DNA from: Escherichia phage FL18
Length of the DNA stretch: 64,000 nucleotides
Strand: one strand, 5' to 3'
Sequence record: PP400780
The translations under genes were made by a program, and so were the position numbers. How positions within the stretch are numbered: position 1 is the first letter of the stretch; every line of letters begins with the position of its first letter. The notes below the pieces were generated by a model. The model made no database searches and was not told the origin of the DNA. It saw only the letters and a program-made list of their open reading frames with translations. Positions 22,557 to 39,844 of the stretch are shown piece by piece.

Positions 22557-25268
22557 ATGAAAGAATTTTACTTAACGGTTGAACAGATTGGTGATTCAAT
22601 TTTTGAACGTTACATCGATTCTAATGGCCGTGAACGTACTCGTGAAGTAGAATATAAACCATCACTGTTTGCTCATTGTCCAGAAAGTCAGGCTACGAAA
22701 TATTTCGATATCTACGGTAAGCCGTGTACTCGTAAGTTGTTCGCTAATATGCGTGATGCCTCCCAATGGATTAAACGCATGGAAGATATCGGACTTGAAG
22801 CACTTGGCATGGACGATTTCAAATTGGCGTATTTGTCTGACACTTATAACTATGAAATCAAATACGACCATACAAAAATTCGTGTGGCTAACTTCGACAT
22901 CGAAGTAACATCTCCGGATGGGTTCCCTGAGCCATCACAAGCAAAACATCCGATTGATGCTATCACCCATTATGACTCAATTGACGACAGGTTCTACGTA
23001 TTTGATCTATTGAATTCTCCATATGGTAATGTAGAAGAATGGTCTATTGAAATCGCTGCTAAGCTTCAAGAACAAGGCGGTGATGAAGTTCCATCTGAAA
23101 TTATCGATAAAATCATTTATATGCCGTTCGATAACGAAAAAGAATTGTTGATGGAATATCTCAACTTCTGGCAACAGAAAACTCCTGTCATTTTGACTGG
23201 ATGGAACGTTGAGTCATTCGATATTCCATATGTGTATAACCGAATCAAGAATATTTTTGGCGAATCTACTGCGAAACGTTTATCACCGCATCGTAAAACT
23301 CGTGTTAAAGTTATCGAAAACATGTATGGTTCTCGTGAAATCATTACATTGTTCGGTATCTCTGTTCTTGATTACATTGACCTTTACAAAAAATTCTCTT
23401 TTACCAATCAACCGTCGTATTCTCTGGATTACATTTCAGAATTTGAATTGAACGTTGGTAAACTGAAATATGATGGCCCTATTTCTAAGCTTCGTGAAAG
23501 CAATCACCAACGATATATAAGCTATAACATCATCGACGTGTATCGTGTATTGCAAATTGATGCTAAGCGTCAGTTCATCAACTTGAGTTTGGACATGGGT
23601 TATTATGCTAAGATACAGATTCAATCTGTGTTTAGCCCAATTAAAACATGGGATGCTATTATTTTTAATAGCCTTAAAGAGCAGAACAAGGTGATTCCAC
23701 AAGGTCGTTCTCACCCGGTTCAACCTTATCCCGGCGCTTTTGTTAAGGAACCTATTCCAAATCGATACAAATATGTAATGAGTTTCGACCTTACATCTCT
23801 GTATCCAAGTATTATTCGCCAAGTGAATATTAGCCCGGAAACAATAGCAGGAACGTTTAAAGTAGCTCCATTGCATGATTATATTAACGCAATCGCTGAA
23901 CGTCCTTCAGATGTGTACAGTTGCTCTCCTAACGGCATGATGTATTATAAAGACCGTGATGGTGTAGTTCCAACTGAAATCACTAAGGTCTTTAATCAAC
24001 GTAAAGAACATAAAGGTTACATGCTTGCAGCTCAACGTAATGGTGAAATAATTAAAGAGGCATTGCATAATCCTAATCTTTCTGTTGACGAACCATTAGA
24101 TGTTGATTATCGTTTCGACTTCAGCGATGAGATTAAAGAAAAGATTAAAAAGTTGTCTGCTAAATCTCTTAATGAAATGTTGTTTAGAGCTCAACGTACT
24201 GAAGTTGCAGGTATGACTGCACAAATTAACCGTAAATTGCTTATCAACTCGCTTTATGGTGCACTTGGAAACGTTTGGTTCCGTTATTACGATTTGCGTA
24301 ATGCAACTGCAATCACAACATTCGGGCAAATGGCTTTACAGTGGATTGAACGTAAAGTTAATGAATATCTGAATGAAGTTTGTGGTACAGAAGGTGAAGC
24401 TTTCGTTCTATATGGTGATACAGACTCCATTTATGTATCTGCAGATAAAATTATTGATAAGGTTGGTGAATCTAAATTCCGTGATACCAACCATTGGGTA
24501 GACTTCTTAGATAAGTTTGCACGTGAACGTATGGAACCTGCTATTGATAGAGGTTTCCGTGAAATGTGCGAATACATGAACAATAAACAACACTTAATGT
24601 TCATGGACCGAGAAGCTATCGCTGGGCCTCCGCTTGGTTCTAAAGGTATTGGCGGATTTTGGACTGGTAAGAAACGTTATGCATTAAACGTGTGGGATAT
24701 GGAAGGTACTCGTTACGCTGAGCCTAAACTCAAAATCATGGGTCTAGAAACTCAGAAATCTTCGACCCCTAAAGCAGTACAGAAAGCTCTTAAAGAATGT
24801 ATTCGTCGTATGCTTCAAGAAGGTGAAGAATCATTACAAGAATATTTTAAAGAGTTTGAAAAAGAATTCCGTCAATTGAATTATATTAGCATCGCGTCGG
24901 TATCTTCTGCGAATAACATTGCTAAATATGACGTAGGTGGATTCCCTGGTCCTAAATGCCCGTTCCATATTCGTGGAATTCTGACATATAACCGAGCTAT
25001 CAAAGGTAATATCGATGCACCACAAGTTGTAGAAGGTGAAAAAGTATATGTTCTGCCTTTACGTGAAGGAAACCCATTCGGTGATAAATGTATCGCATGG
25101 CCTTCTGGTACTGAAATCACAGATTTAATTAAAGACGATGTACTTCATTGGATGGACTACACTGTTCTCCTTGAGAAGACATTTATTAAACCACTTGAAG
25201 GATTCACATCAGCAGCGAAACTCGATTATGAGAAGAAAGCATCTCTGTTCGATATGTTCGATTTTTGA
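22557..25268 (+). CDS. 43: DNA polymerase gp43 (family B, RB69-type)
   Basis: 903 aa; exonuclease motif FDIEV, polymerase motifs DLTSLYPSII and YGDTDS; N-terminus matches recalled RB69 gp43. Confidence 0.97.
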   Translation: MKEFYLTVEQIGDSIFERYIDSNGRERTREVEYKPSLFAHCPESQATKYFDIYGKPCTRKLFANMRDASQWIKRMEDIGLEALGMDDFKLAYLSDTYNYEIKYDHTKIRVANFDIEVTSPDGFPEPSQAKHPIDAITHYDSIDDRFYVFDLLNSPYGNVEEWSIEIAAKLQEQGGDEVPSEIIDKIIYMPFDNEKELLMEYLNFWQQKTPVILTGWNVESFDIPYVYNRIKNIFGESTAKRLSPHRKTRVKVIENMYGSREIITLFGISVLDYIDLYKKFSFTNQPSYSLDYISEFELNVGKLKYDGPISKLRESNHQRYISYNIIDVYRVLQIDAKRQFINLSLDMGYYAKIQIQSVFSPIKTWDAIIFNSLKEQNKVIPQGRSHPVQPYPGAFVKEPIPNRYKYVMSFDLTSLYPSIIRQVNISPETIAGTFKVAPLHDYINAIAERPSDVYSCSPNGMMYYKDRDGVVPTEITKVFNQRKEHKGYMLAAQRNGEIIKEALHNPNLSVDEPLDVDYRFDFSDEIKEKIKKLSAKSLNEMLFRAQRTEVAGMTAQINRKLLINSLYGALGNVWFRYYDLRNATAITTFGQMALQWIERKVNEYLNEVCGTEGEAFVLYGDTDSIYVSADKIIDKVGESKFRDTNHWVDFLDKFARERMEPAIDRGFREMCEYMNNKQHLMFMDREAIAGPPLGSKGIGGFWTGKKRYALNVWDMEGTRYAEPKLKIMGLETQKSSTPKAVQKALKECIRRMLQEGEESLQEYFKEFEKEFRQLNYISIASVSSANNIAKYDVGGFPGPKCPFHIRGILTYNRAIKGNIDAPQVVEGEKVYVLPLREGNPFGDKCIAWPSGTEITDLIKDDVLHWMDYTVLLEKTFIKPLEGFTSAAKLDYEKKASLFDMFDF

Positions 25269-25308: not shown

Positions 25309-25944
25309 ATGAAAACTACTCCTATTACTATCGCTATTGACGCAATCATAAAACAAGCTTCTTCTTTGGCCGCTATGGCCAAAGTAATTAGTCAAAACCC
25401 TGCTCGTTATAATGCTATTCTAGAAACTCTTCGACGCCCTGGACTTAGTAATTATGAAAGCCGGGTAATTATTACAGGTGTTGGTAAGAATGCTAATATC
25501 GCAACTAAAGCTTCCGAGACATTTGCTTCACTAGGTATTCCTAGCATGTATTTGAACACTGGGCATTATTCTCACGGTGATGCAGGATTCATTGCGCCTA
25601 ATGATGTGTTGATTCATATTAGTCGTTCTGGTAAGACTGAAGAAATGATAGGTGTTGCTAAACATCTTCGTATGATTCGTCCTCAGGTTAAACAGATTCT
25701 GTTACATTGTAACCCAGACATTCCACAAGAATACGAAGCTCTTTTTGATTATACGTTCTGTACTGGCATCGCGGTAGAGGTTGATGAGAATTCTCTGGCT
25801 CCGACTATGTCCACTACATTGTTGTTAGCGCTTATCGATACGTTTGCTATCAACCTTTCGTCTGAACGTGGATTTACCTCTAATGATTTCCTTAAGTTCC
25901 ATCCAGGCGGTGCACTAGGTGCCATGTTACGAGGCGAACAATGA
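25309..25944 (+). CDS. SIS-domain sugar-phosphate isomerase (arabinose-5-phosphate isomerase KdsD/GutQ-like, no CBS domains)
   Basis: ITGVGKNANIATK ... HGDAGFIAPNDVLIHISRSGKTEE ... APTMSTTLLLALID ... FHPGGALG align with recalled KdsD SIS-domain motifs. Confidence 0.7.
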   Translation: MKTTPITIAIDAIIKQASSLAAMAKVISQNPARYNAILETLRRPGLSNYESRVIITGVGKNANIATKASETFASLGIPSMYLNTGHYSHGDAGFIAPNDVLIHISRSGKTEEMIGVAKHLRMIRPQVKQILLHCNPDIPQEYEALFDYTFCTGIAVEVDENSLAPTMSTTLLLALIDTFAINLSSERGFTSNDFLKFHPGGALGAMLRGEQ

Positions 25945-26084
25945 AAGCAATAACAATAGGACTTTTACTATTGATGCTTGTCATGACTATCTACTGGAGC
26001 TTAACGGCTCCGGTAATGATTCCAACACTTGTAATTGGATGGATTATGATTGGACTACAAGCAAAGTATGAATGCTTTAACTAG
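25941..26084 (+). CDS. small membrane protein (47 aa)
   Basis: manual translation MKAITIGLLLLMLVMTIYWSLTAPVMIPTLVIGWIMIGLQAKYECFN; ATGA overlap with SIS gene stop; below ORF-track cutoff. Confidence 0.4.
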   Translation: MKAITIGLLLLMLVMTIYWSLTAPVMIPTLVIGWIMIGLQAKYECFN

Positions 26085-26097
26085 AATAGTGTACAAT
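26070..26097 (+). promoter_or_regulatory. putative MotA-dependent middle promoter (MotA box AATGCTTTA, -10 TACAAT 12 nt downstream)
   Basis: aatgctttaactagaatagtgtacaat upstream of nucleotidyltransferase-kinase gene. Confidence 0.4.
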
Positions 26098-26125
26098 ACT
26101 CCTACTTACCAATGAGGACTTTAAC

Positions 26126-27811
26126 ATGAAAAAAGCTGTTATTCTTGGTGCTGGACTGGCAACTCGTTTGTATCCAATAACGCATCATATTCCTAAGGTG
26201 CTTGTTAACTATAAACAAGATACTATTCTGAGCAATTTGTATACAATTTATTCTGACCTTGGCGCAGATGAAATTATTGTAGTAGTTCATTCAAAATTTG
26301 CTGAAACTGTTCGAGCTTATTGTGAACAAGAAGGGTTCAATGTGACTATTCGTACAGTTGATGAAGCGTATGGTTCTGCTTATGCTCTTGCTAAATTACA
26401 CAAAGATTTAGACGGCCATAATGTAATTGTTAACTGGTGTGATATTATTCCTGATTTTGGTTCATGGTCTTGGAATGTTAACGCAATCTATGTTAAGGGT
26501 GACGAATGTCGATATAATTTCGACGGTGAAAATATCACTAACGTAGGTTCAACAGGTGGTAATGTTGTAGGAATTTATCAGTTCAAAGACTGGGAATTCT
26601 ATATGGGTTCTACTGATGAGGAAATTCATGAATACTGCAAAGGACGTGATTTCGTAGAATTCCTTTACGGCAGCGCATTCAATAAATCAGAGCTTATGAA
26701 TCTAATTGATTTAGGTGATATGCCTAAACTTGAAAAAGCTCATGAAGTTCGTGAACTTAATCGTAGTTTTAATGCAGTTGAAATTGGTGAAGAAACTGTA
26801 ACTAAATTCGCATTAACCGAACAGGGTCGAGCTCTTCAGAAAGATGAGATTTCGTGGTATCTTAAAGTGAAATCAGATTCAGTTCCTCAGTTAGTTTCTG
26901 TTAATGAAAATAACTTTGAAATGGAACGCATTAAAGGTAAGCCTGCATTTGAATATATTAAATCCAAATCAAGTCTTGCTCGTCCACAAATTGTTGATGC
27001 AATTTTAGATGCACTGAAATTCAGCACAGACACTTATTTTGTAAGTCCTGAAACTGTTCGTCGTGATTTCACTAAAGAATTCTATACGAAAGTTATTGAT
27101 CGTTGTGAAAGCATTCAACCATTGATTGATTCATTTGGTAAAATCACACATGTGAACTACACTAAGATTGGACGTCTGAAGCCAATGCTGAAACAAGCTT
27201 TAGAACACCTCATTCGTTATCATAACCGTTCTCAGGGACAGTACTCTGTTATTCACGGTGACCCGAACTTCAGTAATACTATGATTACTGATAATGGCGA
27301 AGTCAAGTTTATCGACCCTCGTGGATATTTTGGTGAAACCAAGATTTACGGGCCAAAATTGTACGATGAAGCTAAAGTGCTTTATGCTGTTTCAGGTTAT
27401 GATGAATTCAATGCTAATCCGACCTGGGGGCAGTTTACTATTGATGAAACAACTTGTAATGTGACTATTAACATCAATCCATTAGTTTACAAATATAGAA
27501 AGATGAGTTCGTTTAACGAGTATCATCATTTGGCAGTGGCAATTATCTGGATTGCATTAGGCGGTTATTTCAAGAATAATCCACTTAAAGCGGTAGCCGC
27601 ATATTATAAAGGTATGGAACTTCTGACTAAGCAATTACGTAACATGGGCCGTGTACTTCAGGACGGCTCTATTAGTTATGACGTAGCAGAACCTGTAACG
27701 GCTACTCTGATTACAAAAAATCCTGGTAAATGGGTACTAACTGATAAAGAAACTGGTGTTTCCTATCGTCCAATCGGTGGCGATATCACTCATCAATGGG
27801 AACGAATCTAA
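26126..27811 (+). CDS. bifunctional sugar-1-phosphate nucleotidyltransferase / kinase-like fusion protein
   Basis: N-terminus MKKAVILGAGLATRLYPITHHIPKVLV (sugar nucleotidyltransferase G-rich loop); C-terminal region has protein-kinase-like HGDPNFSNTMI (catalytic loop) and FIDPRGYFG (DFG-like) as in APH/choline-kinase-type small-molecule kinases. Confidence 0.65.
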   Translation: MKKAVILGAGLATRLYPITHHIPKVLVNYKQDTILSNLYTIYSDLGADEIIVVVHSKFAETVRAYCEQEGFNVTIRTVDEAYGSAYALAKLHKDLDGHNVIVNWCDIIPDFGSWSWNVNAIYVKGDECRYNFDGENITNVGSTGGNVVGIYQFKDWEFYMGSTDEEIHEYCKGRDFVEFLYGSAFNKSELMNLIDLGDMPKLEKAHEVRELNRSFNAVEIGEETVTKFALTEQGRALQKDEISWYLKVKSDSVPQLVSVNENNFEMERIKGKPAFEYIKSKSSLARPQIVDAILDALKFSTDTYFVSPETVRRDFTKEFYTKVIDRCESIQPLIDSFGKITHVNYTKIGRLKPMLKQALEHLIRYHNRSQGQYSVIHGDPNFSNTMITDNGEVKFIDPRGYFGETKIYGPKLYDEAKVLYAVSGYDEFNANPTWGQFTIDETTCNVTININPLVYKYRKMSSFNEYHHLAVAIIWIALGGYFKNNPLKAVAAYYKGMELLTKQLRNMGRVLQDGSISYDVAEPVTATLITKNPGKWVLTDKETGVSYRPIGGDITHQWERI

Positions 27812-28197
27812 TGCACCGTGTAGAAAACATGCTTAATCTTTGTTTTGATGTCGATGATTGTATAACAGAGTGGAATAACAATCGTGATTACGTGAACTTC
27901 AAACCTGACGTCGAAATGGTGTCTGCCATTAATGCCCTGTATGATGCAGGGCATACCATAACGCTTTACACTGCTCGCGGTATGAAGTCAGTAGGTCCTG
28001 GACGTATAGCAATTGACATTCTCCCAAGTCTGATTCAGAACTTGGAAAACATTGGTTTGAAGTACCATAATTTGCTAACACATAAACCAGTATATGATTG
28101 GATTATCGACGACAAAGCTATGCGTCCTGACGAATTCAAAGCTCTTATGAATAAAGGCGAATTCGAAACATTTAAATCGTATAAACCGAATCTATAA
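27811..28197 (+). CDS. HAD-superfamily phosphatase-like protein (start uncertain: 27796, 27811 or 27829)
   Basis: N-terminal LCFDVDDCIT (motif I-like DxD), TITLYTARG (motif II-like), WIIDDK (motif IV-like). Confidence 0.5.
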   Translation: MHRVENMLNLCFDVDDCITEWNNNRDYVNFKPDVEMVSAINALYDAGHTITLYTARGMKSVGPGRIAIDILPSLIQNLENIGLKYHNLLTHKPVYDWIIDDKAMRPDEFKALMNKGEFETFKSYKPNL

Positions 28198-28253
28198 TAA
28201 TTTAAGTAAGACCTGCAAAAACCATCGCGTCAATTAACGTGAGATGCAAAAAA

Positions 28254-29414
28254 ATGAATACTTTTAAAATTGGAACGAATTTTGATTTAGCTCTTCTTGA
28301 TAAAATCGTAGAGCTCAATAAAACTTATCCTAATAGCTTGATAAACGAAGTATACGGCTCTACAAGAGAAATGGCTTTTGTAGCAGCCAGACCTGATTTT
28401 AGGCTTCCTGACGTTGACAAAAAGATGTTAGAAGATTACGTTAAACGTTGTAACGAATTAGGTATTTGCTTTAACTATACACTCAACACGATAAATCCTG
28501 GTTCAAAAAGAGAACTAGTTGAGTGGAAGAAGAAAGCTATTCAGGATTATGTTCAGTATCTTTGGTCAATAGGTGTATGGCGTATTACTATCGCTAACCC
28601 TGTTGTTATGGAAATTGTTCGTGAAGTCAATAAAGACATTGAGATTGAAGTTTCAACAATTCTACATGTCGATGCTGTAACTCAAATCAAATACTTGCAT
28701 GACCAGTATAATATCAAAAAGGTCTGCTGTGGAATTCATAAGAACCGTTCAGTTTCTTTCCTGAAGCGTGCAGCAGAGTTTTGCAATAAGAACAATATAA
28801 TATTTGAAGTTCTTGTAAATGAGTTCTGTTCTAATGCTGGTAAAGGGTATACAACACATTGTAGCTATCGTGACTCTTGCTATATTTTCCATAGTACTGA
28901 TGTTACAGCTGATGATGCTAAATCCTTAAACGGATATCCTATGCAGCACTGTATTAAAGCTCGTGATACAGACCCATTTAACTGGTTGAGAACTCGTTTT
29001 GTTCGTCCTCAAGATTTGAAACTTTATAATGATATTGGTATCACTCAATTCAAAGTTTCAGGACGTACAGGTAGCACAGACTACATTTTGAAAGTTCTTG
29101 AAGCATACGCTTCTGAAAAGTTTGAAGGTAATTTGTTAGAACTGTGGAAGCCTTTAGAGACTATTTTCACTCTTGAAAACGAAACTGAGTTTTCACATAC
29201 AGTAAATATTGAAACCTCTTTGTTAGATGGCTTTTTAGAAAAAAGGTGGTTCAGACATCCAGATTTCGATTGTGCTAATGAAATCTGCGGGACGACGTGT
29301 ACATATTGTGAAAGATATTATAAACGTCAATTATCTAAAAACGGGTTAGCAGAAAACTCTATATCTATTATTGATATAACTAACTCTGATGACGCTTTGA
29401 GGTACCCGGAATGA
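28254..29414 (+). CDS. Cys-rich protein of unknown function (candidate metallo/Fe-S enzyme)
   Basis: 386 aa from ATG at 28254; Cys clusters CCGIH, FCSNAGKGYTTHCSYRDSC and C-terminal CANEICGTTCTYC (contains CX3CX2C). Confidence 0.5.
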   Translation: MNTFKIGTNFDLALLDKIVELNKTYPNSLINEVYGSTREMAFVAARPDFRLPDVDKKMLEDYVKRCNELGICFNYTLNTINPGSKRELVEWKKKAIQDYVQYLWSIGVWRITIANPVVMEIVREVNKDIEIEVSTILHVDAVTQIKYLHDQYNIKKVCCGIHKNRSVSFLKRAAEFCNKNNIIFEVLVNEFCSNAGKGYTTHCSYRDSCYIFHSTDVTADDAKSLNGYPMQHCIKARDTDPFNWLRTRFVRPQDLKLYNDIGITQFKVSGRTGSTDYILKVLEAYASEKFEGNLLELWKPLETIFTLENETEFSHTVNIETSLLDGFLEKRWFRHPDFDCANEICGTTCTYCERYYKRQLSKNGLAENSISIIDITNSDDALRYPE

Positions 29415-29650
29415 TTTCTAGAAAAACTTTTAATCACCAACTTAATGAAGAGATTTTGACTACGAAACTGAACACTAACGAACAAATTCTTAAAAAGGCC
29501 CTTATGGGCCTGTTTGAAACCAAAGCGGCTAAAGTGATTAAAGGACCTGTTCAATTAGAATATTACGCTGATACATTTCTTCATAGTGTTCTTGGAAGTA
29601 TCGATGCTGAAGCTTTACGTTATATCAACATTGCCAAGAAATTCAAATAA
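29411..29650 (+). CDS. hypothetical protein (79 aa)
   Basis: ATGA-overlapping ORF at end of sugar cassette. Confidence 0.45.
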   Translation: MISRKTFNHQLNEEILTTKLNTNEQILKKALMGLFETKAAKVIKGPVQLEYYADTFLHSVLGSIDAEALRYINIAKKFK

Positions 29651-29692: not shown

Positions 29693-30409
29693 ATGGGGAA
29701 ACATAACACAATGAAATATATCAAAGCCGCAGATTTTCAAACCGCATTTAAAGCAGTCAATCGTGAAATTTTAGAAAACCCGGAATTCGTAACTGATTCT
29801 CGTATTGGACGTTGTAATGAAATTGGGTCTATGACAGTAGTTGTTGACACTCCATCATCATTCAAAATGACTGACCCACGTATTAACCGCATCTCTTATG
29901 AATATGCCGAAGACTTCTGGAAGTTTATGATTTCTGGTGGTACCAACGCAGAAGAAGCGTTTAAGGCATATCCTAATGTCGCTAAATTTATTTCTAAACC
30001 AAAATCAGATGTTTTGCCGGCGAACTTCAATACTTTCTATGGTCCTCGCATTGCGGCCCAATTACCAGCTCTTCTAAAAGAACTTAAAGAGAAGCCTAAC
30101 TCTCGAAGAGTTGTGTTCCAAATTCTAGAAAGTTCTGATCAGGCTTTGCTTGATTCGGATGAAACGCTTGAATATCCATGTACTGACTCAGTGACTTATT
30201 ATATTCGTGATGGTAAGCTTTATACCCACTGTCATATGCGTTCTCAGAACTGTGCTGTTGTTATGCAGTTGGATTTTTATCTCCAAGGAAAATTACTTCA
30301 TTATATCGCTAACGAATGCGGTGTAGAAGTTGGTGATTATACTCATACCATGGTAAGTGCCCATGTGTTTGAACGTGATTTTGATTATGTTAAAGGATTC
30401 CTTGACTAA
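29693..30409 (+). CDS. 42: deoxynucleotide hydroxymethylase, thymidylate-synthase family (T4 gp42 dCMP hydroxymethylase-like)
   Basis: YPCTDSVTYYIRDGKLYTHCHMRSQNCAVVMQLDFY matches the TS/dCH catalytic core (PC nucleophile, MRS motif); synteny downstream of 43. Confidence 0.75.
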   Translation: MGKHNTMKYIKAADFQTAFKAVNREILENPEFVTDSRIGRCNEIGSMTVVVDTPSSFKMTDPRINRISYEYAEDFWKFMISGGTNAEEAFKAYPNVAKFISKPKSDVLPANFNTFYGPRIAAQLPALLKELKEKPNSRRVVFQILESSDQALLDSDETLEYPCTDSVTYYIRDGKLYTHCHMRSQNCAVVMQLDFYLQGKLLHYIANECGVEVGDYTHTMVSAHVFERDFDYVKGFLD

Positions 30410-31308
30410 TGGCTATTTTCCGCGTACCAATCTTGAGTATGCGGTCTTATGAAACTGGACAGTATGCTATCCTTAAGGATGGCAACTTCCAACTTCATTT
30501 GCACCGTGCTAATCCGGGTGATGTGATTACATATCCACGTAATGCATCTGATATTAAAGAATGCGAACGTCTTTTCCCAGAATTTAAGTTTGTTCCATTA
30601 TGGTATAAAGATAACGCTTATAACACTCGTAAATATTTCTGGTCTGAAAATGAATTTGTGGTTGATTCATTAATTGCTTATTATGATTGCGATTTTCTAA
30701 TCACAGATATAACTGGATATGACGGCGCTTTTGATGTAGAATTCAATTTCAATATCACTGCAGACCCTAATAAACCACGTTTTTATATTGACGAATTCTT
30801 AAAAACCGACATGTTGTCGGTTAATCGTTCAATCCAAACAACTGTGTTGAATGAACGTCAAAAAGAAGTGCTGGTTAACGCAGGTGCAGATGGTAATAAG
30901 ATTATCGTAACGCAGAAAGTTATACGTCCTTCCATCATGCAGCGTCTTGTAGGTGATTTGGCTCCTATTTATCTAGATGGTATTTTTCATCCATTTCGAA
31001 TTAGTGACCCGTGCTATCGTTTTGAACAAGTGGTTGAATGTGCAATTCAATTAGGTCAACCGCTTTATATAACCGATCCAAATAATAGCTTTGACAGAAA
31101 TAAGTATCCTGAAGAAGCGTTGATTCGAATTTTTAAACCAACTAAAACTGAGTACTATCAAATTCTTAAAGGACGTCCGAAGATTCAATATTTCGAAAAT
31201 CCTGAAGAGGTATTTCATCCAGGTCTTGGTGAGTTCATCTACTTTAATGCTTTAATTTCTTCACCGTATAATATACCTAAATATGAAGATGTCGTAATCG
31301 AGGAATAA
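30409..31308 (+). CDS. hypothetical protein occupying the T4 beta-glucosyltransferase locus (candidate DNA sugar transferase)
   Basis: 299 aa ORF between gene 42 and uvsX; no similarity to recalled T4 beta-GT. Confidence 0.45.
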   Translation: MAIFRVPILSMRSYETGQYAILKDGNFQLHLHRANPGDVITYPRNASDIKECERLFPEFKFVPLWYKDNAYNTRKYFWSENEFVVDSLIAYYDCDFLITDITGYDGAFDVEFNFNITADPNKPRFYIDEFLKTDMLSVNRSIQTTVLNERQKEVLVNAGADGNKIIVTQKVIRPSIMQRLVGDLAPIYLDGIFHPFRISDPCYRFEQVVECAIQLGQPLYITDPNNSFDRNKYPEEALIRIFKPTKTEYYQILKGRPKIQYFENPEEVFHPGLGEFIYFNALISSPYNIPKYEDVVIEE

Positions 31309-31309
31309 A

Positions 31310-31858
31310 ATGGCTAAAATTATTTTAGTAGATGGCCCGGATAATGCTGGTAAAACAACTTTCATTAATGACATAATGGAAATTAGTGAAAGATATGTAA
31401 AAATTGATTTCCCTAAACGAACAGTTGATGGACGTTTCGATGTTAAGTCTCGAAATGAAGTTGGCTGTTTTGAAACGATGTTGAATTATTTAGACCCTAC
31501 TAAGATTTATCTGTTAGACCGTGGATATATTAGTAACTGGGTTTACGGACGTATTCGACAAGATGCGGACTCGGTTCTTGACGTTTATGAACAGGATTAT
31601 ATTCGTCTTTGCCAAAACCATGATGTGTTCACAATTATTTTAACACGTAACGAAATGACTGAAAGTTTTGAAGACGACCTTATTACTTTGTCTTCATTCG
31701 GTTTTAATACAGTCATTTCACATTTTGAAGAGTTTGCAATTCATAACAAAATCCAAACGTATCAATTACTTAATCATGATGGTGCTAACAAAGTTATAGG
31801 ATTTAATGCAAGCGAACGTAATGGTTTGATTACAGAAATCATCAAATGGGCTCGTTAA
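31310..31858 (+). CDS. P-loop nucleoside/nucleotide kinase-like protein
   Basis: Walker A GPDNAGKTT near N-terminus; LLDRGYISNWVYG resembles the DR(Y) motif of TMK/dNK-type kinases. Confidence 0.5.
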   Translation: MAKIILVDGPDNAGKTTFINDIMEISERYVKIDFPKRTVDGRFDVKSRNEVGCFETMLNYLDPTKIYLLDRGYISNWVYGRIRQDADSVLDVYEQDYIRLCQNHDVFTIILTRNEMTESFEDDLITLSSFGFNTVISHFEEFAIHNKIQTYQLLNHDGANKVIGFNASERNGLITEIIKWAR

Positions 31859-33473: not shown

Positions 33474-34916
33474 GTGGTAGAAATTATTTTGTCTCATCTC
33501 GTATATGACCAGGCTTATTTTTCTAAGGTCTGGCCTTATATGGATTCTGAGTATTTTGAGCGTGGACCAGCAAAAAATGTCTTTAAAATTATAAAGAGCC
33601 ACGTTAACGAATATAATGCAATGCCATCTATCAATGCGTTAAAGGTGGCTTTAGATAACAGTTCTTTAACTGAAGCCGAATATAAAGGAACTTCAGACCT
33701 AATTGAAAAATTGGCTGATACTCCTGAAGACCATGAATGGTTGGTTAAAGAAACTGAGAAATATGTCCAGCAAAAAGCGATGTATAATGCTACATCCAAA
33801 ATCATTGAGATTCAGTCTAATGCTGAACTACCTCCAGAACAACGTAACAAGAAAATGCCTGACGTAGGAGCTATTCCTGATATTATGCGTCAAGCACTTT
33901 CAATTTCGTTCGATAGTTATGTTGGACATGACTGGATGGAAGACTACGAAGCACGCTGGCTTTCTTATCTAAATAAAGCGCGTAAGGTCCCGTTCAAATT
34001 AAACATTTTGAATAAAATCACTAAAGGTGGTGCTGAAACAGGTACACTAAACGTTTTAATGGCCGGTGTTAACGTTGGTAAATCTTTAGGCCTTTGTTCA
34101 CTTGCTGCAGATTATCTTCAAACAGGTCATAATGTTCTTTATATTTCCATGGAAATGGCTGAAGAAGTTTGTGCTAAGCGTATAGATGCAAACATGCTTG
34201 ACGTATCACTCGATGATATCGATGATGGTAACGTATCTTATGCTGAATATAAAGCCAAGATGGAAAAATGGCGTTCAAAAACAACATTAGGACGTTTAGT
34301 AGTTAAACAGTATCCTACTGGCGGAGCTAATGCTAATACATTCCGTGCATTGCTTAATGAGTTAAAACTTAAGAAGAACTTTGTGCCATCTGTAATCATG
34401 GTTGATTACTTAGGTATTTGTGGGTCTTGTCGTATCAGAGTTTACACTGAAAATAGCTACACATTAGTTAAAGCTATCGCAGAAGAACTTCGTGCATTAG
34501 CAGTAGAATCTGAAACAGTTCTATGGACTGCAGCTCAAGTAGGACGTGCAGCATGGGATGCTTCAGACATGAACATGAGTGATATCGCAGAATCAGCAGG
34601 TTTACCAGCAACGGCAGATTTCATGTTGGCTGTAATTGAAACCGAAGAACTTGCACAAGCCGAACAACAACTTATCAAACAAATCAAATCACGATATGGT
34701 GATAAGAATAAGTGGAATAAATTCCTGATGGGTGTACGTAAAGGCAATCAGAAATGGGTTGAGATTGAGCAAGAAGGCATGAACACACCTAACACAGTAA
34801 ATGAAAACGCAGGTGCTCAGATGCGTCAGGCAGAGGTGAATCGTACGGAACGCGTAGGTAAAGCCAAAGCAACACGTGCTGACCTAGATAGCTTAGCCAA
34901 TGAGTTAAAATTTTAA
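33474..34916 (+). CDS. 41: replicative DNA helicase gp41 (DnaB-like)
   Basis: 480 aa, GTG start with AAGGAG SD; Walker A GVNVGKS; synteny. Confidence 0.9.
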   Translation: MVEIILSHLVYDQAYFSKVWPYMDSEYFERGPAKNVFKIIKSHVNEYNAMPSINALKVALDNSSLTEAEYKGTSDLIEKLADTPEDHEWLVKETEKYVQQKAMYNATSKIIEIQSNAELPPEQRNKKMPDVGAIPDIMRQALSISFDSYVGHDWMEDYEARWLSYLNKARKVPFKLNILNKITKGGAETGTLNVLMAGVNVGKSLGLCSLAADYLQTGHNVLYISMEMAEEVCAKRIDANMLDVSLDDIDDGNVSYAEYKAKMEKWRSKTTLGRLVVKQYPTGGANANTFRALLNELKLKKNFVPSVIMVDYLGICGSCRIRVYTENSYTLVKAIAEELRALAVESETVLWTAAQVGRAAWDASDMNMSDIAESAGLPATADFMLAVIETEELAQAEQQLIKQIKSRYGDKNKWNKFLMGVRKGNQKWVEIEQEGMNTPNTVNENAGAQMRQAEVNRTERVGKAKATRADLDSLANELKF

Positions 34917-34920
34917 TAAA

Positions 34921-34943
34921 AAGGAGACTTCGGTCTCCTTTCG
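34921..34943 (+). terminator. stem-loop GGAGAC-TTCG-GTCTCC followed by T-rich tract
   Basis: inverted repeat after gene 41 stop. Confidence 0.55.
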
Positions 34944-35004
34944 GGGTTTACATCTTCCTCTAGGCATGATATGATGTACTTACACAAACCAAGAGGAAAA
35001 CATT

Positions 35005-35379
35005 ATGAATATGTCTCAAGCAATTTTTACTGCAATCACCGAAAACACAACTGTTGAAGTAGTTTCTCCGCTGGCAACCTACGTTATTCTTGCTCCTAAA
35101 ACTATTGTATCTCGTATGGAAAACATGGGCAAACGTATCGTACAAATTGTTGGAGCTGGAAATCAAAAACTTGATTATCTACGAACCATCAAAGCTTATG
35201 AACATTTCCAACTCGAAAAAGGTTCTCCTATCCAGGTAGAACTCGTAAATGGTGATATCGTTCGAGCAATGTTCCATCATTTCTATGCATTGAATGACCC
35301 ATCTAAAGCGGTTCGTTTAATTGCATATGACGCAAACCAAAACGAAATCAACGCAGATGTATCTAAATTACGTTTTTAA
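35005..35379 (+). CDS. hypothetical protein (124 aa)
   Basis: ORF with GAGGA SD. Confidence 0.5.
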   Translation: MNMSQAIFTAITENTTVEVVSPLATYVILAPKTIVSRMENMGKRIVQIVGAGNQKLDYLRTIKAYEHFQLEKGSPIQVELVNGDIVRAMFHHFYALNDPSKAVRLIAYDANQNEINADVSKLRF

Positions 35380-35380
35380 G

Positions 35381-35426
35381 TTTACTTCTCCGGTAGTTGT
35401 GTTATTATAGATCTATCAACTACTGG
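35381..35426 (+). promoter_or_regulatory. T4-type early promoter with -10 between long inverted repeat (CCGGTAGTTG / CAACTACTGG)
   Basis: gtttacttctccggtagttgtgttattatagatctatcaactactgg. Confidence 0.5.
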
Positions 35427-35434
35427 AGAACAAA

Positions 35435-35752
35435 ATGAAAACCATCGATTGTAAAGCAGAATTTAAGATTTTTTATCATGGTTCAAGTAGTTCAGCTAAC
35501 ATCGAAAACATGCTTTGTCCTCCTGAAGAAACAGGAGTTCTGTCTGAAACTGGACGTAAGAAAAACTTGGATCGTGTATTCTTTACTGAAGATATCGGTT
35601 TAGCAAAGATTTATGCAGGACGAGCAGCACGCTCTTATGGAGGTGAACCACGTCTCTATCGAGTAATTTCTCCGGTAGATGTAGTTCAAATGAATGATAC
35701 TAAAGGTGCTACAGTTTATCACGCTGAATGGGCATTTTGCGAGGAAATATGA
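35435..35752 (+). CDS. hypothetical protein (105 aa)
   Basis: ORF-track entry. Confidence 0.5.
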   Translation: MKTIDCKAEFKIFYHGSSSSANIENMLCPPEETGVLSETGRKKNLDRVFFTEDIGLAKIYAGRAARSYGGEPRLYRVISPVDVVQMNDTKGATVYHAEWAFCEEI

Positions 35753-35940
35753 GCAAATTAACTAAAGTTACTTTTATCGGTTGGTTTAAAAGCGGTGAGA
35801 TGTTCACTAAAGATATCATGTTATCAGGTGATCGCGAAGAAATCGAGTGGGTTACGGTACAACTTGCTGAAGTGAACAATGCATTAGTTAAAGCATTTAT
35901 TAATGACGAGAAAGTTTTTGAAGCTGATTTCAGAGGATAA
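35749..35940 (+). CDS. hypothetical protein (63 aa)
   Basis: in-frame ATG within ORF-track entry 35728..35940. Confidence 0.4.
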   Translation: MSKLTKVTFIGWFKSGEMFTKDIMLSGDREEIEWVTVQLAEVNNALVKAFINDEKVFEADFRG

Positions 35941-35941
35941 T

Positions 35942-36154
35942 ATGTATTCAACTGTGTTTAAACCATCAGCATACGAATTTGCATCAACTACACAATGGAA
36001 AGCTCTTATTCTGGAAGGATGGGAACTAATGATGGACTGTGAAGCATCTGAAAAGTTTCCACACGGCAAAGTGGACTTCGTTAAATTTGCTGTGCGTCCG
36101 ACTAAACGACAGATTCGTCAAGAAAAACGCAAATTTCGAAAAAGTTTAAAATAG
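35942..36154 (+). CDS. hypothetical small basic protein (70 aa)
   Basis: in-frame ATG within ORF-track entry 35903..36154; C-terminal VRPTKRQIRQEKRKF motif shared with 8005..8202. Confidence 0.4.
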   Translation: MYSTVFKPSAYEFASTTQWKALILEGWELMMDCEASEKFPHGKVDFVKFAVRPTKRQIRQEKRKFRKSLK

Positions 36155-36190
36155 CTGTTTACAAGCACCACATACTGTGTTACTATATTT
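36154..36190 (+). promoter_or_regulatory. T4-type early promoter (GTTTACAA ... TACTAT)
   Basis: ctgtttacaagcaccacatactgtgttactatatttctatc. Confidence 0.45.
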
Positions 36191-36214
36191 CTATCAACTA
36201 CAGAGGAAATTGAA

Positions 36215-36583
36215 ATGAAAAAATTAATCGCTTTAGCAATGGTGTTCGGATTAACTGGATGTGGTGCTCATGGCTTTATCCCTAATAACGTTGGCCAACT
36301 GATTTACAATCCGAATGTTAAACAGTACAACCAACCTAAAGTTGAAGTGGAAGACCCGGTTACTGTAGGTAATCGAATGATTCAAGCTGATGCCCATGCT
36401 CAACGTTATCGTGATTCTGATACCGTAGCGTTGTCAAAAGAACAACGCGTTAAAGAACATTGCTTACAGGCTACTGAAATCGCATTCATTCGCTATGTTG
36501 AAACAACTGGTAAAGAGCCTACCCAGAAACAAATCGCGAATAACTACGTCCAGTGTATTGAACGTTTAAACAAATTTAATTAA
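36215..36583 (+). CDS. predicted lipoprotein (signal peptide with lipobox LTGC)
   Basis: MKKLIALAMVFGLTGCGAHG N-terminus. Confidence 0.55.
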   Translation: MKKLIALAMVFGLTGCGAHGFIPNNVGQLIYNPNVKQYNQPKVEVEDPVTVGNRMIQADAHAQRYRDSDTVALSKEQRVKEHCLQATEIAFIRYVETTGKEPTQKQIANNYVQCIERLNKFN

Positions 36584-36644
36584 TTGGTTTACGCAAAAGT
36601 TAAAACAAGATACTATAAACATAACAAATCAAGAGGAAATTAAC

Positions 36645-36893
36645 ATGGAATTATTCGTAGCTAGTTCAGTAGCAGTTTTAATCGCAGGTATTGGTTCAAT
36701 CATCATTTACATGTTGCCTTGGGTAATCGCACTTATTCGTGGCACAAAAAGCACAACAGCAATCTTCTTTGTATCTTTACTCTTTAACTGGACGATGATT
36801 GGTTGGATTGGAACTTTAATTTGGTCTATCGTTGCCGAAAAGAAATCTGCTCAGCAGCCTCAACAAGTAATTATTATTCGCGAAAAAGAATAA
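36645..36893 (+). CDS. imm: small membrane protein, superinfection-immunity (Imm)-like
   Basis: 82 aa, two TM segments, NWTMIGWIGTLIWSIV motif resembling the T4 Imm family; assignment from memory. Confidence 0.45.
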   Translation: MELFVASSVAVLIAGIGSIIIYMLPWVIALIRGTKSTTAIFFVSLLFNWTMIGWIGTLIWSIVAEKKSAQQPQQVIIIREKE

Positions 36894-36894
36894 A

Positions 36895-36936
36895 CTTGTT
36901 TACATTATAGATGGACTATGGTATAGTAGTCCTATC
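36895..36936 (+). promoter_or_regulatory. T4-type early promoter with -10 in stem-loop (GGACTA TGGTATAG TAGTCC)
   Basis: cttgtttacattatagatggactatggtatagtagtcctatc. Confidence 0.5.
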
Positions 36937-36956
36937 AAATCAACTAAGGAGTTAAA

Positions 36957-37250
36957 ATGAAAAAGTTATCATTGGCAGCAATCTTACTTGCAGTATCATG
37001 TGCACCGGCTCCAGTTACGGCAGGTTATGATAAAGACCTCTGTGAGTGGTCAATGACTGCAAATCAAGAAGATGTTGAACAACAAATCTTCTCTGATATC
37101 ATGAACATCACTAAACGAGACCGTCCTAATATGGTTAATAAAGTTGTTGAACAACTTAAGTCTGGCGGTATCATGCAGTACAACTATGTTTTGTATTGTG
37201 ACCCTAATTTCGATAACAAAGATATCGTAACCGAAATCACAGGTGAATAA
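36957..37250 (+). CDS. sp: periplasmic protein Spackle-like (superinfection exclusion)
   Basis: 97 aa, signal peptide, GYDKDLCEWSMTA ... GGIMQYNYVLYCD matches recalled T4 Sp (gene 61.3). Confidence 0.6.
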   Translation: MKKLSLAAILLAVSCAPAPVTAGYDKDLCEWSMTANQEDVEQQIFSDIMNITKRDRPNMVNKVVEQLKSGGIMQYNYVLYCDPNFDNKDIVTEITGE

Positions 37251-37251
37251 T

Positions 37252-37902
37252 ATGATTTATTACATGCACAAAAACGCACCATTTAAATATGGTAAATTTC
37301 CTAATGCACAATGTTATAATATAACGCCGAATGAAAATAATAACGGATACCATATTGGTGTAATTTTTGTAATTGTTAAAGATAACGAAATCGTTGCCTG
37401 GGCAGATTTTAAAGGTACAACATATGATGTTAATCCTGTGCCTTTCACATATTACAATATAATGGATTTGGCATATGATTATAATTGGTTTACTCATGAC
37501 ACGTTGGCTCATATTGAAGGTGTAGGATTTGACATCTCTTATTCTAGCTATTCATTATGTCCTATGAGCCGAGCTCACGGTAAAGATGTATCATATCTTT
37601 CAATTCGGAAACGTGTAAACTTCAAACGTAGTACAGAGTATGTTGGTGGACTCTTTGTTAAAGATAATAAAATAACCCGTATTAGTTATCCTTTAAGTGT
37701 AGGTCAAAAAGATGTTGATGTTGATTTAGACTTAACTGAAAGTAACATTAATCGTATTGCTTCTGTATATTTTGATATCGATGAAAAAATTGTAGTGTGT
37801 GGATACGAATTACCACCTGAAGAAAAGGCTGAAACAATTGAAGTCGAATTAGAAATTTCTGTTGATGACCAAATATTTAACGCATTTATGAATCGAGGTT
37901 AA
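37252..37902 (+). CDS. hypothetical protein (216 aa)
   Basis: in-frame ATG within ORF-track entry 37243..37902. Confidence 0.5.
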   Translation: MIYYMHKNAPFKYGKFPNAQCYNITPNENNNGYHIGVIFVIVKDNEIVAWADFKGTTYDVNPVPFTYYNIMDLAYDYNWFTHDTLAHIEGVGFDISYSSYSLCPMSRAHGKDVSYLSIRKRVNFKRSTEYVGGLFVKDNKITRISYPLSVGQKDVDVDLDLTESNINRIASVYFDIDEKIVVCGYELPPEEKAETIEVELEISVDDQIFNAFMNRG

Positions 37903-37903
37903 A

Positions 37904-38101
37904 ATGACTACTGCAATTTGCACTGGTTCTAAAATTAGTGTTTTTACAAGTTTTGAAGATTATGAAGTTGTTTCAAAACACCAATGCCATATTAGCGTAA
38001 AAGCTAATGATGGTGTAATTTGGAATATTCCACACTATGAAGACACTACATATGAAGTCACAGATGCGAACGGTGATAAAGCGATCTTTGTGATTGATTA
38101 A
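37904..38101 (+). CDS. hypothetical protein (65 aa)
   Basis: ORF-track entry. Confidence 0.45.
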   Translation: MTTAICTGSKISVFTSFEDYEVVSKHQCHISVKANDGVIWNIPHYEDTTYEVTDANGDKAIFVID

Positions 38102-38120
38102 ATATACTCAGGAGGTACCT

Positions 38121-38588
38121 ATGGGTATTATTAACACTGCAATAGATTCTGTTTATGCATATAAGTTTATTCGACTAATGCAAAAACCTTTTACTGAATG
38201 GAAAGCATACGAAGCCAAAATCATCGATGAACGTGGAAGTGTTCTTAAACGTCCTTCTACTCCAGAAGAGAAAGCGGCTTATACACCTTTTCATGCTTCA
38301 GTTCGTTCAATGAAGCGAATGATGAGCACTGTTCCAGGTCTTAATGGAATGGCCTCAATGATGTCTGCCTGGAGTGCTGTAGCTTCACGCTATAACATTA
38401 CAGAAGAACAACAGAAAGAAATATTTAAAGAACTCCCTTTATTTGAGGATATGGTTGCTGGTGATTCAGGTGGCAGCCCTCAAGCTATTGCATCAGGAAC
38501 AACTACAGGTGCAGTCGTAAATAAAGGCCCCGAACAAATTCCTTCCAAGAAAAGAAAGCGAATTAAAGTAAATATTAATAAGTTGTGA
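38121..38588 (+). CDS. hypothetical protein (155 aa)
   Basis: ATG at 38121 preceded by AGGAGG SD; within ORF-track entry 38094..38588. Confidence 0.5.
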   Translation: MGIINTAIDSVYAYKFIRLMQKPFTEWKAYEAKIIDERGSVLKRPSTPEEKAAYTPFHASVRSMKRMMSTVPGLNGMASMMSAWSAVASRYNITEEQQKEIFKELPLFEDMVAGDSGGSPQAIASGTTTGAVVNKGPEQIPSKKRKRIKVNINKL

Positions 38589-38627
38589 TAAGATGGCCTT
38601 ATTAATTTAAGGCCTCTGGAGAATACT

Positions 38628-39650
38628 ATGGCTGAATGGATAGATAATGAATTTGCTTATCGTGCGTTTTCTCACCTACCTCGTTTTAGACAAATCAATA
38701 ATTCAAGCACATTTAAATTAACATTTCGATGTCCAGTTTGTGGCGACTCCCAGACAGATGCAATGAAAGCTCGCGGATGGTATTACGGTGGTACTCCTGG
38801 TAATGTACATTGCTATAACTGTCAATACCACAATACAATTTCCGGATACTTAAAAGAGTACGATGAAGAGCTTTATCGCGAATATCTAATGGAAGTTCGT
38901 AAAGAAAAAGCTAGAATGGAACCAAAGATTGAAAAGGTTCCTGAAGCTAAGCCGGAGCCAGAGAAAAAGACTATAAATTCTTTGCCGTCTTGTTCTCGTC
39001 TGGACAAGTTGCCTGAAGAGCATCCTATTGTGAAATATGTTAAGTCTCGGTGTATTCCTAAAGAATCATGGAACAGATTATGGTTCACATTAGAATGGCC
39101 CAAATTGGTCAACAAGATTCAACCTGGTACGTATAAGAAAGAGATTCCCGAACCACGTTTAGTGATTCCTATTTTTAATAAAGACGGGAAGGCCGAGTCA
39201 TTCCAAGGACGTGCACTTCGTAAAGATGCTCCTCAGAAATATATCACTATTAAAGCATTTGAGTCTGCAACAAAAATTTATGGTGTTGAACGTGTTAAGG
39301 AAGGAGACGTCTGGGTAATGGAAGGCCCTATTGATAGTTTATTCATACCCAATGCAATCGCTATTACAGGCGGCTCAATAGATTTAGATGTGGTACCATT
39401 TAAAGAACGTCGGGTATGGGTAATGGATAATGAACCTAGGCATCCGGATACTATAGCTCGCATGAAGCGATTAGTTGATGCAGGCGAACGTGTCATGTTC
39501 TGGGACCGAGCTCCATGGAGTTCAAAGGATGTGAATGATATGGTAATGAAAGAAAATGCAACACCACAAGAAATTTTAGAATATATGAAACAGAATATTT
39601 CAAGTGGGTTGCATGCTAAAATGAGATTATCTCGTTATTCGAAGATTTAA
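38628..39650 (+). CDS. 61: DNA primase gp61
   Basis: 340 aa; zinc-binding CPVCGDS ... CYNC and Toprim region; near-identical to recalled T4 gp61. Confidence 0.95.
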   Translation: MAEWIDNEFAYRAFSHLPRFRQINNSSTFKLTFRCPVCGDSQTDAMKARGWYYGGTPGNVHCYNCQYHNTISGYLKEYDEELYREYLMEVRKEKARMEPKIEKVPEAKPEPEKKTINSLPSCSRLDKLPEEHPIVKYVKSRCIPKESWNRLWFTLEWPKLVNKIQPGTYKKEIPEPRLVIPIFNKDGKAESFQGRALRKDAPQKYITIKAFESATKIYGVERVKEGDVWVMEGPIDSLFIPNAIAITGGSIDLDVVPFKERRVWVMDNEPRHPDTIARMKRLVDAGERVMFWDRAPWSSKDVNDMVMKENATPQEILEYMKQNISSGLHAKMRLSRYSKI

Positions 39651-39844
39651 ACCAGACCTATAATAGCAAAGGCCAAATCAACTACAGTATCCAATGGAAC
39701 AGAAGGAACTATAATACCATGGGCAACTAACAATGGTGCAATCCCGAAGTTCCATGAAATAATGCCACCTACAACTATTGCAGCGATAGCAGTTTTCTTT
39801 TTATTGCCTTTAATAGCGTTGATTAACGATGGAAGTTTAAACAT
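39647..39844 (-). CDS. small membrane protein (65 aa), encoded on the minus strand
   Basis: reverse complement of 39844..39836 is ATGTTTAAA (MFK); AAGGAG SD upstream on minus strand; ORF track lists it as + but the + strand at 39647 reads TTA. Confidence 0.5.
   Translation of the reverse strand: MFKLPSLINAIKGNKKKTAIAAIVVGGIISWNFGIAPLLVAHGIIVPSVPLDTVVDLAFAIIGLV

Follow-up and report, generated by a model that had tools for sequence, protein, structure and literature searches.

The three ORFs located at 36215-37250 of the window analyzed here, a stretch of 64,000 nucleotides from Escherichia phage FL18 (PP400780), are, as judged from sequence comparison, the already annotated RB69-type genes imm.1, imm, and spackle (sp). 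They very probably represent orthologues of T4 imm.1, imm, and sp and belong to the early genes, the T4-type imm.1-imm pair having been gained beside sp and the copy after gene 43 having been lost. The imm.1-imm-sp order is the normal layout of the genus Mosigvirus and has been known since the RB69 record of 2003. The adjacency of imm and sp is genus-wide and publicly annotated, and the locus does not constitute a newly assembled functional module.

Identification of imm.1, imm, and sp

All three genes are located on the plus strand, and a Shine-Dalgarno sequence was found 6-9 nt before the ATG codon of each. The gene imm.1 (36215-36583) encodes a predicted lipoprotein of 122 aa (DUF5481/phrog_1754), imm (36645-36893) encodes a superinfection immunity membrane protein of 82 aa, and sp, or gene 61.3 (36957-37250), encodes a Spackle precursor of 97 aa with a signal peptide at residues 1-22. 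The coordinates, strand, and lengths given in a preliminary description of the region were exact. The window derives from an RB69-like T4-type phage of the genus Mosigvirus with approximately 98% identity to RB69. Over positions 35000-39000, the identity to RB69 was 98.2%, and 154 phage records span at least 80% of this segment. The GenBank record of RB69 (AY303349, 2003) names imm.1, imm, and sp between genes 61.4 and 61.2. The RB69 proteins Imm.1 (AAP75939), Imm (AAP75938), and Sp (AAP75937) shared 100%, 98.8%, and 99% identity with those of the window, and the order and position of the genes were identical, with essentially no difference between the two phages. The T4 counterparts were 32% (Imm.1), 65% (Imm), and 66% (Sp) identical to the window proteins. 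The Pfam and PHROG matches of all three ORFs were far above chance level. As a discovery, the locus carries little weight, as the names and order of the genes were made public in 2003 and are repeated in over 150 sequenced relatives.

The 97-aa protein had been recognized as Spackle, which is corroborated by the Pfam family T4_Spackle (PF25676; 145 bits against a gathering threshold of 27, E = 1.1e-42), a PHROG match (E = 2.9e-42), PDB entry 6x6o (E = 1.4e-39 over residues 1-97), and an end-to-end match to the T4 protein. The crystallized mature chain (7cn6) aligns to residues 23-97. The N-terminus, consisting of KK, a hydrophobic core, and VTA|G, is predicted to form a cleavable signal peptide (residues 1-22). 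In comparison with T4 Spackle (gp61.3; PDB 6X6O, 6XC0, 6XC1, 7CN6, and 7CN7), Sp shows 66% identity from end to end without gaps, a signal peptide of equal length, and the same genomic slot; its upstream neighbor is imm in the window and 61.4 in T4. The gp5-contact residues are kept: S32, M33, T34, A35, Q37, and N76, reported by Shi et al. as the Spackle contacts with the gp5 lysozyme (PMC7677548), are identical in the gap-free alignment. In the periplasm, T4 Sp blocks the tail lysozyme gp5 of secondary phages (PMC7677548), and by analogy we infer that mature Sp of the window is a periplasmic inhibitor of this enzyme.

Imm matched the Pfam family Imm_superinfect (PF14373) with 57.2 bits (gathering threshold 27.9, E = 1.5e-15), the alignment spanning all 42 positions of the profile, and also phrog_1039, 'immunity to superinfection' (E = 9.9e-31). 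Two hydrophobic stretches, approximately at residues 3-31 and 38-64 and parted by R32-G-T-K35, were detected on the Kyte-Doolittle scale (19-residue windows, score above 1.5); residues 48-63 are NWTMIGWIGTLIWSIV. The assignment of the 82-aa product to two-TM proteins of the Imm family therefore holds, as the profile score, the hydrophobic segments, and the identity to T4 Imm agree with it. The two proteins are 65-66% identical over the full length (83 aa in T4 versus 82 aa) and share both hydrophobic segments and the C-terminal QVIIIREKE tail. T4 Imm is a plasma-membrane protein that stops genome transfer (PMC6832632 and references therein).

Imm.1 was assigned to Pfam DUF5481 (PF17578; 37.3 bits, gathering threshold 27, E = 3.8e-9) and to phrog_1754 (E = 2.5e-29), and BLASTP aligned it to T4 Imm.1 (E = 1e-18, 32% identity). 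As proposed earlier, it has the features of a lipobox lipoprotein: KK and a hydrophobic N-terminus are followed by L13-T-G-C16 with Gly at position +2, in accordance with the pattern [LVI][ASTVI][GAS]C (MKKLIALAMVFG-LTGC16). By the +2 rule alone (Gly, not Asp), the protein would probably be sorted to the outer membrane. Across the Imm.1 family, conservation of the lipobox Cys reaches 90% or more, and two further Cys are nearly invariant. T4 Imm.1 is likewise a lipobox lipoprotein (approximately 122-125 aa for both) encoded directly upstream of imm, with DUF5481 and phrog_1754 matches and a helical C-terminal part that contains two conserved Cys; it differs in carrying an extra Cys pair (NCSSKF...KCY), which the window protein lacks. 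In the window, imm.1 is located 61 nt upstream of imm. Imm.1 is thus the usual neighbor of imm and an orthologue of the T4 protein, so the lipoprotein is not the new partner it had been taken for.

Imm.1 has diverged much faster than Imm (32% versus 65% identity to T4). Its family is tiny, comprising 35 clusters (50% identity) in a set of 1.84 billion protein representatives, and every member placed in genomic context was from T4-like phages. Hits to giant Ig/cadherin adhesins were traced to one 40-residue stretch matched repeatedly and were judged compositional, not homologous. Imm.1 gave no match in NCBIfam or PADLOC and none in Pfam besides DUF5481, and a search of its profile against PDB sequences yielded only signal-peptide-level hits (E > 0.3). 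The AlphaFold2 model, built from a 27-sequence alignment, was of moderate confidence (pLDDT 63.7) and consisted of a hairpin and three helices. A Foldseek search of the model against PDB returned nothing below E = 1 and therefore provided no functional lead. A literature search found no paper on the function of Imm.1.

One paper wrongly reports Imm.1 as absent in the RB69 group. In the T4 RefSeq entry (NC_000866, 26636-27013), imm.1 is labeled 'iduronate sulfatase'; nothing supports this label, and the product is a 125-aa DUF5481 lipoprotein. In one variant (P0002; locus L019, 718-1086), Phe replaces the lipobox Cys (LAGF), and a signal-peptidase I-like site, AHA|S, is present. This variant, seen on a single 1.5-kb contig only, may be a soluble periplasmic form.

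Gene order and origin of the imm.1-imm pair

The T4 order is 43, imm.1, imm, 42, b-gt, segA, uvsX, 40, 41, dmd, 61.4, sp, 61.2, 61.1, and 61, in line with the earlier statements that T4 imm lies between 43 and 42 and T4 sp near gene 61, namely between 61.4 and 61.2. The window contains 43 (22557-25268), a sugar cassette, a 42-like gene (29693-30409), two ORFs (30409-31858), uvsX, 40, and 41, followed by two ORFs, dmd, 61.4, imm.1, imm, sp, 61.2, two small ORFs, 61.1, and 61. The sugar cassette does occupy the T4 imm site, as previously noted: the 43-to-42 interval (25309-29650) includes SIS, nucleotidyl-transferase, and U32-like genes. Neither imm nor imm.1 was detected in this interval. The gene sp is in its ancestral slot between 61.4 and 61.2, as in T4, and therefore the imm.1-imm pair is the part that sits elsewhere. 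T4 imm, located between 43 and 42, is separated from the upstream imm.1 by 11 nt and precedes an ORF of phrog_3610, whereas imm of the window adjoins sp, has its own promoter-like site, and is not followed by a phrog_3610 ORF.

Two observations were made on the genes next to the sugar cassette. The product of the 42-like gene shares approximately 25% identity with T4 gp42 and 99% with RB69 gp48, which is a 5-hydroxy-dCMP synthase in the cytosine-arabinosylation cluster (PMC13326640). The next ORF (30409-31308, plus strand) encodes 299 aa and is likewise undivided in Kanagawavirus Q7622. The RB69 record shows two ORFs in its place (ORF047c and ORF046c), a split that points to a stop or a sequencing error in that record.

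Five further phages of the sample likewise carry imm after gene 43, each time flanked by an Imm.1-family gene: Gaprivervirus P896, Moonvirus Merlin, Dhakavirus AnYang, Gelderlandvirus STML-198, and Klebsiella phage Roth76; seven genera were sampled overall. In a search with a chimeric Imm+Sp query, imm adjoined sp in 157 of 985 phage records, all the matches listed being RB69-like phages, and in the other records the two genes were at two separate genome places. The arrangement is not peculiar to this phage, as shown by these 157 records and by the RB69 record of 2003. Chimeric queries also placed Imm.1 next to Imm in 662 records of the T4 type (Mosigvirus included) and in 149 records of the Klebsiella type. 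Enterobacter phage vB_EclM_Q7622 (Kanagawavirus, NC_070778) encodes an Imm.1-like lipoprotein directly after gene 43 (locus L014, 15956-16483), and a six-frame scan of its whole 174-kb genome revealed no detectable Imm (best E = 0.095). The linkage of Imm.1 to imm is strong, not absolute.

The 43-to-42 interval of the window retains a hydrophobic phrog_3610 ORF of 47 aa (25941-26084, plus strand) between the SIS and nucleotidyl-transferase genes. ORFs of this family are conserved (45-49 aa, motif MIPTLI(L/I)GW...YEC(F/I)N) and follow imm with an ATGA overlap in T4, P896 (Gaprivervirus), and AnYang (Dhakavirus). The position of this ORF in the window suggests that it is a footprint of the ancestral imm site. 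Further copies were located in T4 (L002, 12231-12377, minus strand) and in locus L005 (3707-3844). The ORF is missing from the AnYang annotation and from T4 RefSeq, and the T4 reference annotation appears to overlook here a conserved 49-aa membrane ORF after imm.

The affinities of gp43 and Imm are reversed. Mosigvirus gp43 is 75-83% identical to those of Dhakavirus, Kanagawavirus, and Gaprivervirus versus 62% to that of T4, and Imm of the window is 66% identical to T4 Imm versus 54-57% to those of Dhakavirus and Gaprivervirus. In the sister genera, gene 43 is followed by imm, phrog_3610, and a long Imm.1 (166-175 aa), whereas the pair in the window resembles that of the T4 clade, with imm.1 before imm and a short DUF5481-type Imm.1. 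Of 27 Imm.1 homologues, only the two short 122-aa forms bore a precomputed Pfam DUF5481 tag. A metagenomic contig of the T4 clade carries, after gene 43, an intermediate Imm.1 (49% identity to the window protein and 47% to T4) with imm and phrog_3610 downstream. This intermediate Imm.1 is one of the two tagged 122-aa forms.

Based on the phrog_3610 ORF left at the old site, the T4 gene order, and the closer similarity of Imm to T4 than to the sister genera, the data suggest that a T4-type imm.1-imm cassette was acquired rather than moved within the genome; the argument for lateral acquisition draws on one 82-aa protein from seven taxa. The preliminary description had called imm relocated. This is correct relative to T4 in that imm lies next to sp and not between 43 and 42, but acquisition is favored over a move. 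A hop of the pair within the genome of the Mosigvirus ancestor, from the 43-to-42 interval to the 61.4/sp junction, with displacement by the sugar-modification cassette and no foreign DNA, is a conceivable but somewhat unlikely alternative. It would account for the arabinosylation cassette that fills the vacated interval (PMC13326640), the early promoter cassettes repeated at both loci could have served as recombination sites, and a move combined with fast divergence could fit, given the short Imm and few taxa. Against such a hop, imm and imm.1 coexist with a related cassette at that site in Dhakavirus, and the presence of the cassette thus does not require the pair to be displaced. A hop also agrees poorly with the order of the sister genera (imm, phrog_3610, and long Imm.1), as a short Imm.1 precedes imm in the window, like in T4, with phrog_3610 left behind, and the window Imm is closest to that of T4. 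The argument for acquisition, in turn, is tempered by the generally noisy phylogeny of Imm: Gelderlandvirus Imm is nearer to Dhakavirus Imm than to T4 Imm.

Parsimony favors loss at the old site combined with acquisition of a T4-type cassette at the junction of 61.4 and sp. According to this scenario, the Mosigvirus ancestor would have received the imm.1-imm pair immediately before sp and lost the post-gene-43 copy usual for the clade. By analogy with related phages, recombination between the early promoter/leader cassettes, which recur beside small early genes, is the most likely route by which the pair arrived. The locus would then be a clear-cut case of T4-like lineages with a common host in which a small early-gene cassette was replaced at one position and gained at another.

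Promoter-like sites and transcription

One early-type promoter-like site was found 28-30 nt upstream of each start codon: GTTTAC-N18-TACTAT before imm.1 (36157-36186, plus strand) and before imm (36587-36616, plus strand), and GTTTAC-N18-TATAGT before sp (36898-36927, plus strand). The sites were recognized by their match to the consensus and not by mapping of transcript starts. In the window, the pattern GTTTAC-N16-18-TANNNT was counted 22 times (20 on the plus strand) against 2.4 expected, and this number was reached in none of 100 shuffles. In the aligned intergenic regions, GTTTAC is invariant and the leaders are similar. In T4, the gap between imm.1 and imm is only 11 nt where the window has the promoter-like site before imm. 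No terminator-like sites were found between imm.1, imm, and sp, and an Rfam search of 34500-39000 gave no RNA family match.

With its own early-type promoter, each gene could start its own early transcript, and read-through across the three genes is likely. As to a single operon, the sequence patterns comprise three promoter-like sites, one for each gene, and no terminator-like site between the genes. The idea of a consolidated module is not supported in the sense of a functional unit: the early-type promoter-like sites are separate, and sp is in its usual place. In T4-like phages, PeSL promoter-terminator cassettes are a known shuffling mechanism (PMC2839356, PMC4122927). The spacers in the window resemble them as repeated intergenic blocks of approximately 60 nt with an early promoter that flank each small early gene; PeSL cassettes, however, carry a stem-loop/terminator part, which was not found in the three spacers.

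Proposed functions and neighboring genes

We infer the functions of RB69 Imm and Sp from T4 by orthology. By this analogy, host sigma-70 RNA polymerase would transcribe imm.1, imm, and sp right after infection, each from its own early-type promoter. Sp would be exported to the periplasm with cleavage of the 22-residue signal peptide. When a further T-even phage adsorbs, Sp would bind the gp5 lysozyme domain at the tip of that phage's tail, so that neither cell-wall penetration nor lysis from without could proceed. Imm would enter the inner membrane via its two hydrophobic segments and keep incoming DNA from crossing that membrane. Imm.1 is predicted to be made as a lipoprotein, probably sent to the outer membrane. 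RB69 shows no lysis inhibition (PMC6832632), and the physiological context and details of the mechanism may therefore differ from those in T4.

Imm.1 might be a functional partner of Imm, an outer-membrane lipoprotein that would help to build or target the block at the DNA-injection site. Imm.1 flanks imm in seven genera despite inverted order and changed locus, the pair being adjacent in at least 662 + 149 phage records, and has a conserved lipobox and two nearly invariant Cys; the small size of the family and its occurrence, wherever the context was examined, in T4-like phages also speak for a partnership. We nevertheless consider it unlikely, as Q7622 keeps an Imm.1-like lipoprotein with no detectable Imm, Imm.1 evolves far faster than Imm, and the AlphaFold model of moderate pLDDT gave no informative fold match. 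In addition, imm alone on a plasmid reportedly gives exclusion (Lu and Henning, 1989). If the partnership were real, the Mosigvirus cluster would unite outer-membrane, inner-membrane, and periplasmic exclusion factors.

The more specific proposal that Imm.1 is a third envelope factor of T-even superinfection exclusion, cooperating with Imm at the injection site as an outer-membrane lipoprotein, is also unlikely. If it were true, the lasting linkage to imm, despite inversion, relocation, and lateral exchange, would be a sign of that function, and the phrog_3610 membrane ORF might represent a fourth component of the ancestral cluster. It is very improbable that Imm.1 is an exclusion lipoprotein that masks a receptor and, like T5 Llp or lambdoid Cor, keeps competitors from adsorbing. 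The predicted outer-membrane location, early synthesis, and quick divergence between genera, as in an arms race, would suit such a role, but T-even-infected cells still adsorb secondary phages and exclusion is post-adsorption (PMC6832632), and the searches of PADLOC, NCBIfam, and PDB yielded no match, with only a DUF in Pfam. The way in which T4 Imm blocks DNA entry is poorly understood, and its conserved neighbor Imm.1 is a cheap target for a knockout.

Gene 61.2 (37243-37902, plus strand), located right after sp, gave a full-length match to Pfam AdfA, anti-DarT factor A (E = 3.3e-118). With this gene and dmd (35728-35940), early genes for counter-defence and exclusion cluster in the 41-to-61 interval. 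A 105-aa ORF (35435-35752) was considered as an Arr ADP-ribosyltransferase-like gene and rejected, as family and profile searches gave no support. A hydrophobic ORF of 65 aa (39647-39844, minus strand; RB69ORF029w) between genes 61 and 56 is the sole minus-strand gene nearby.
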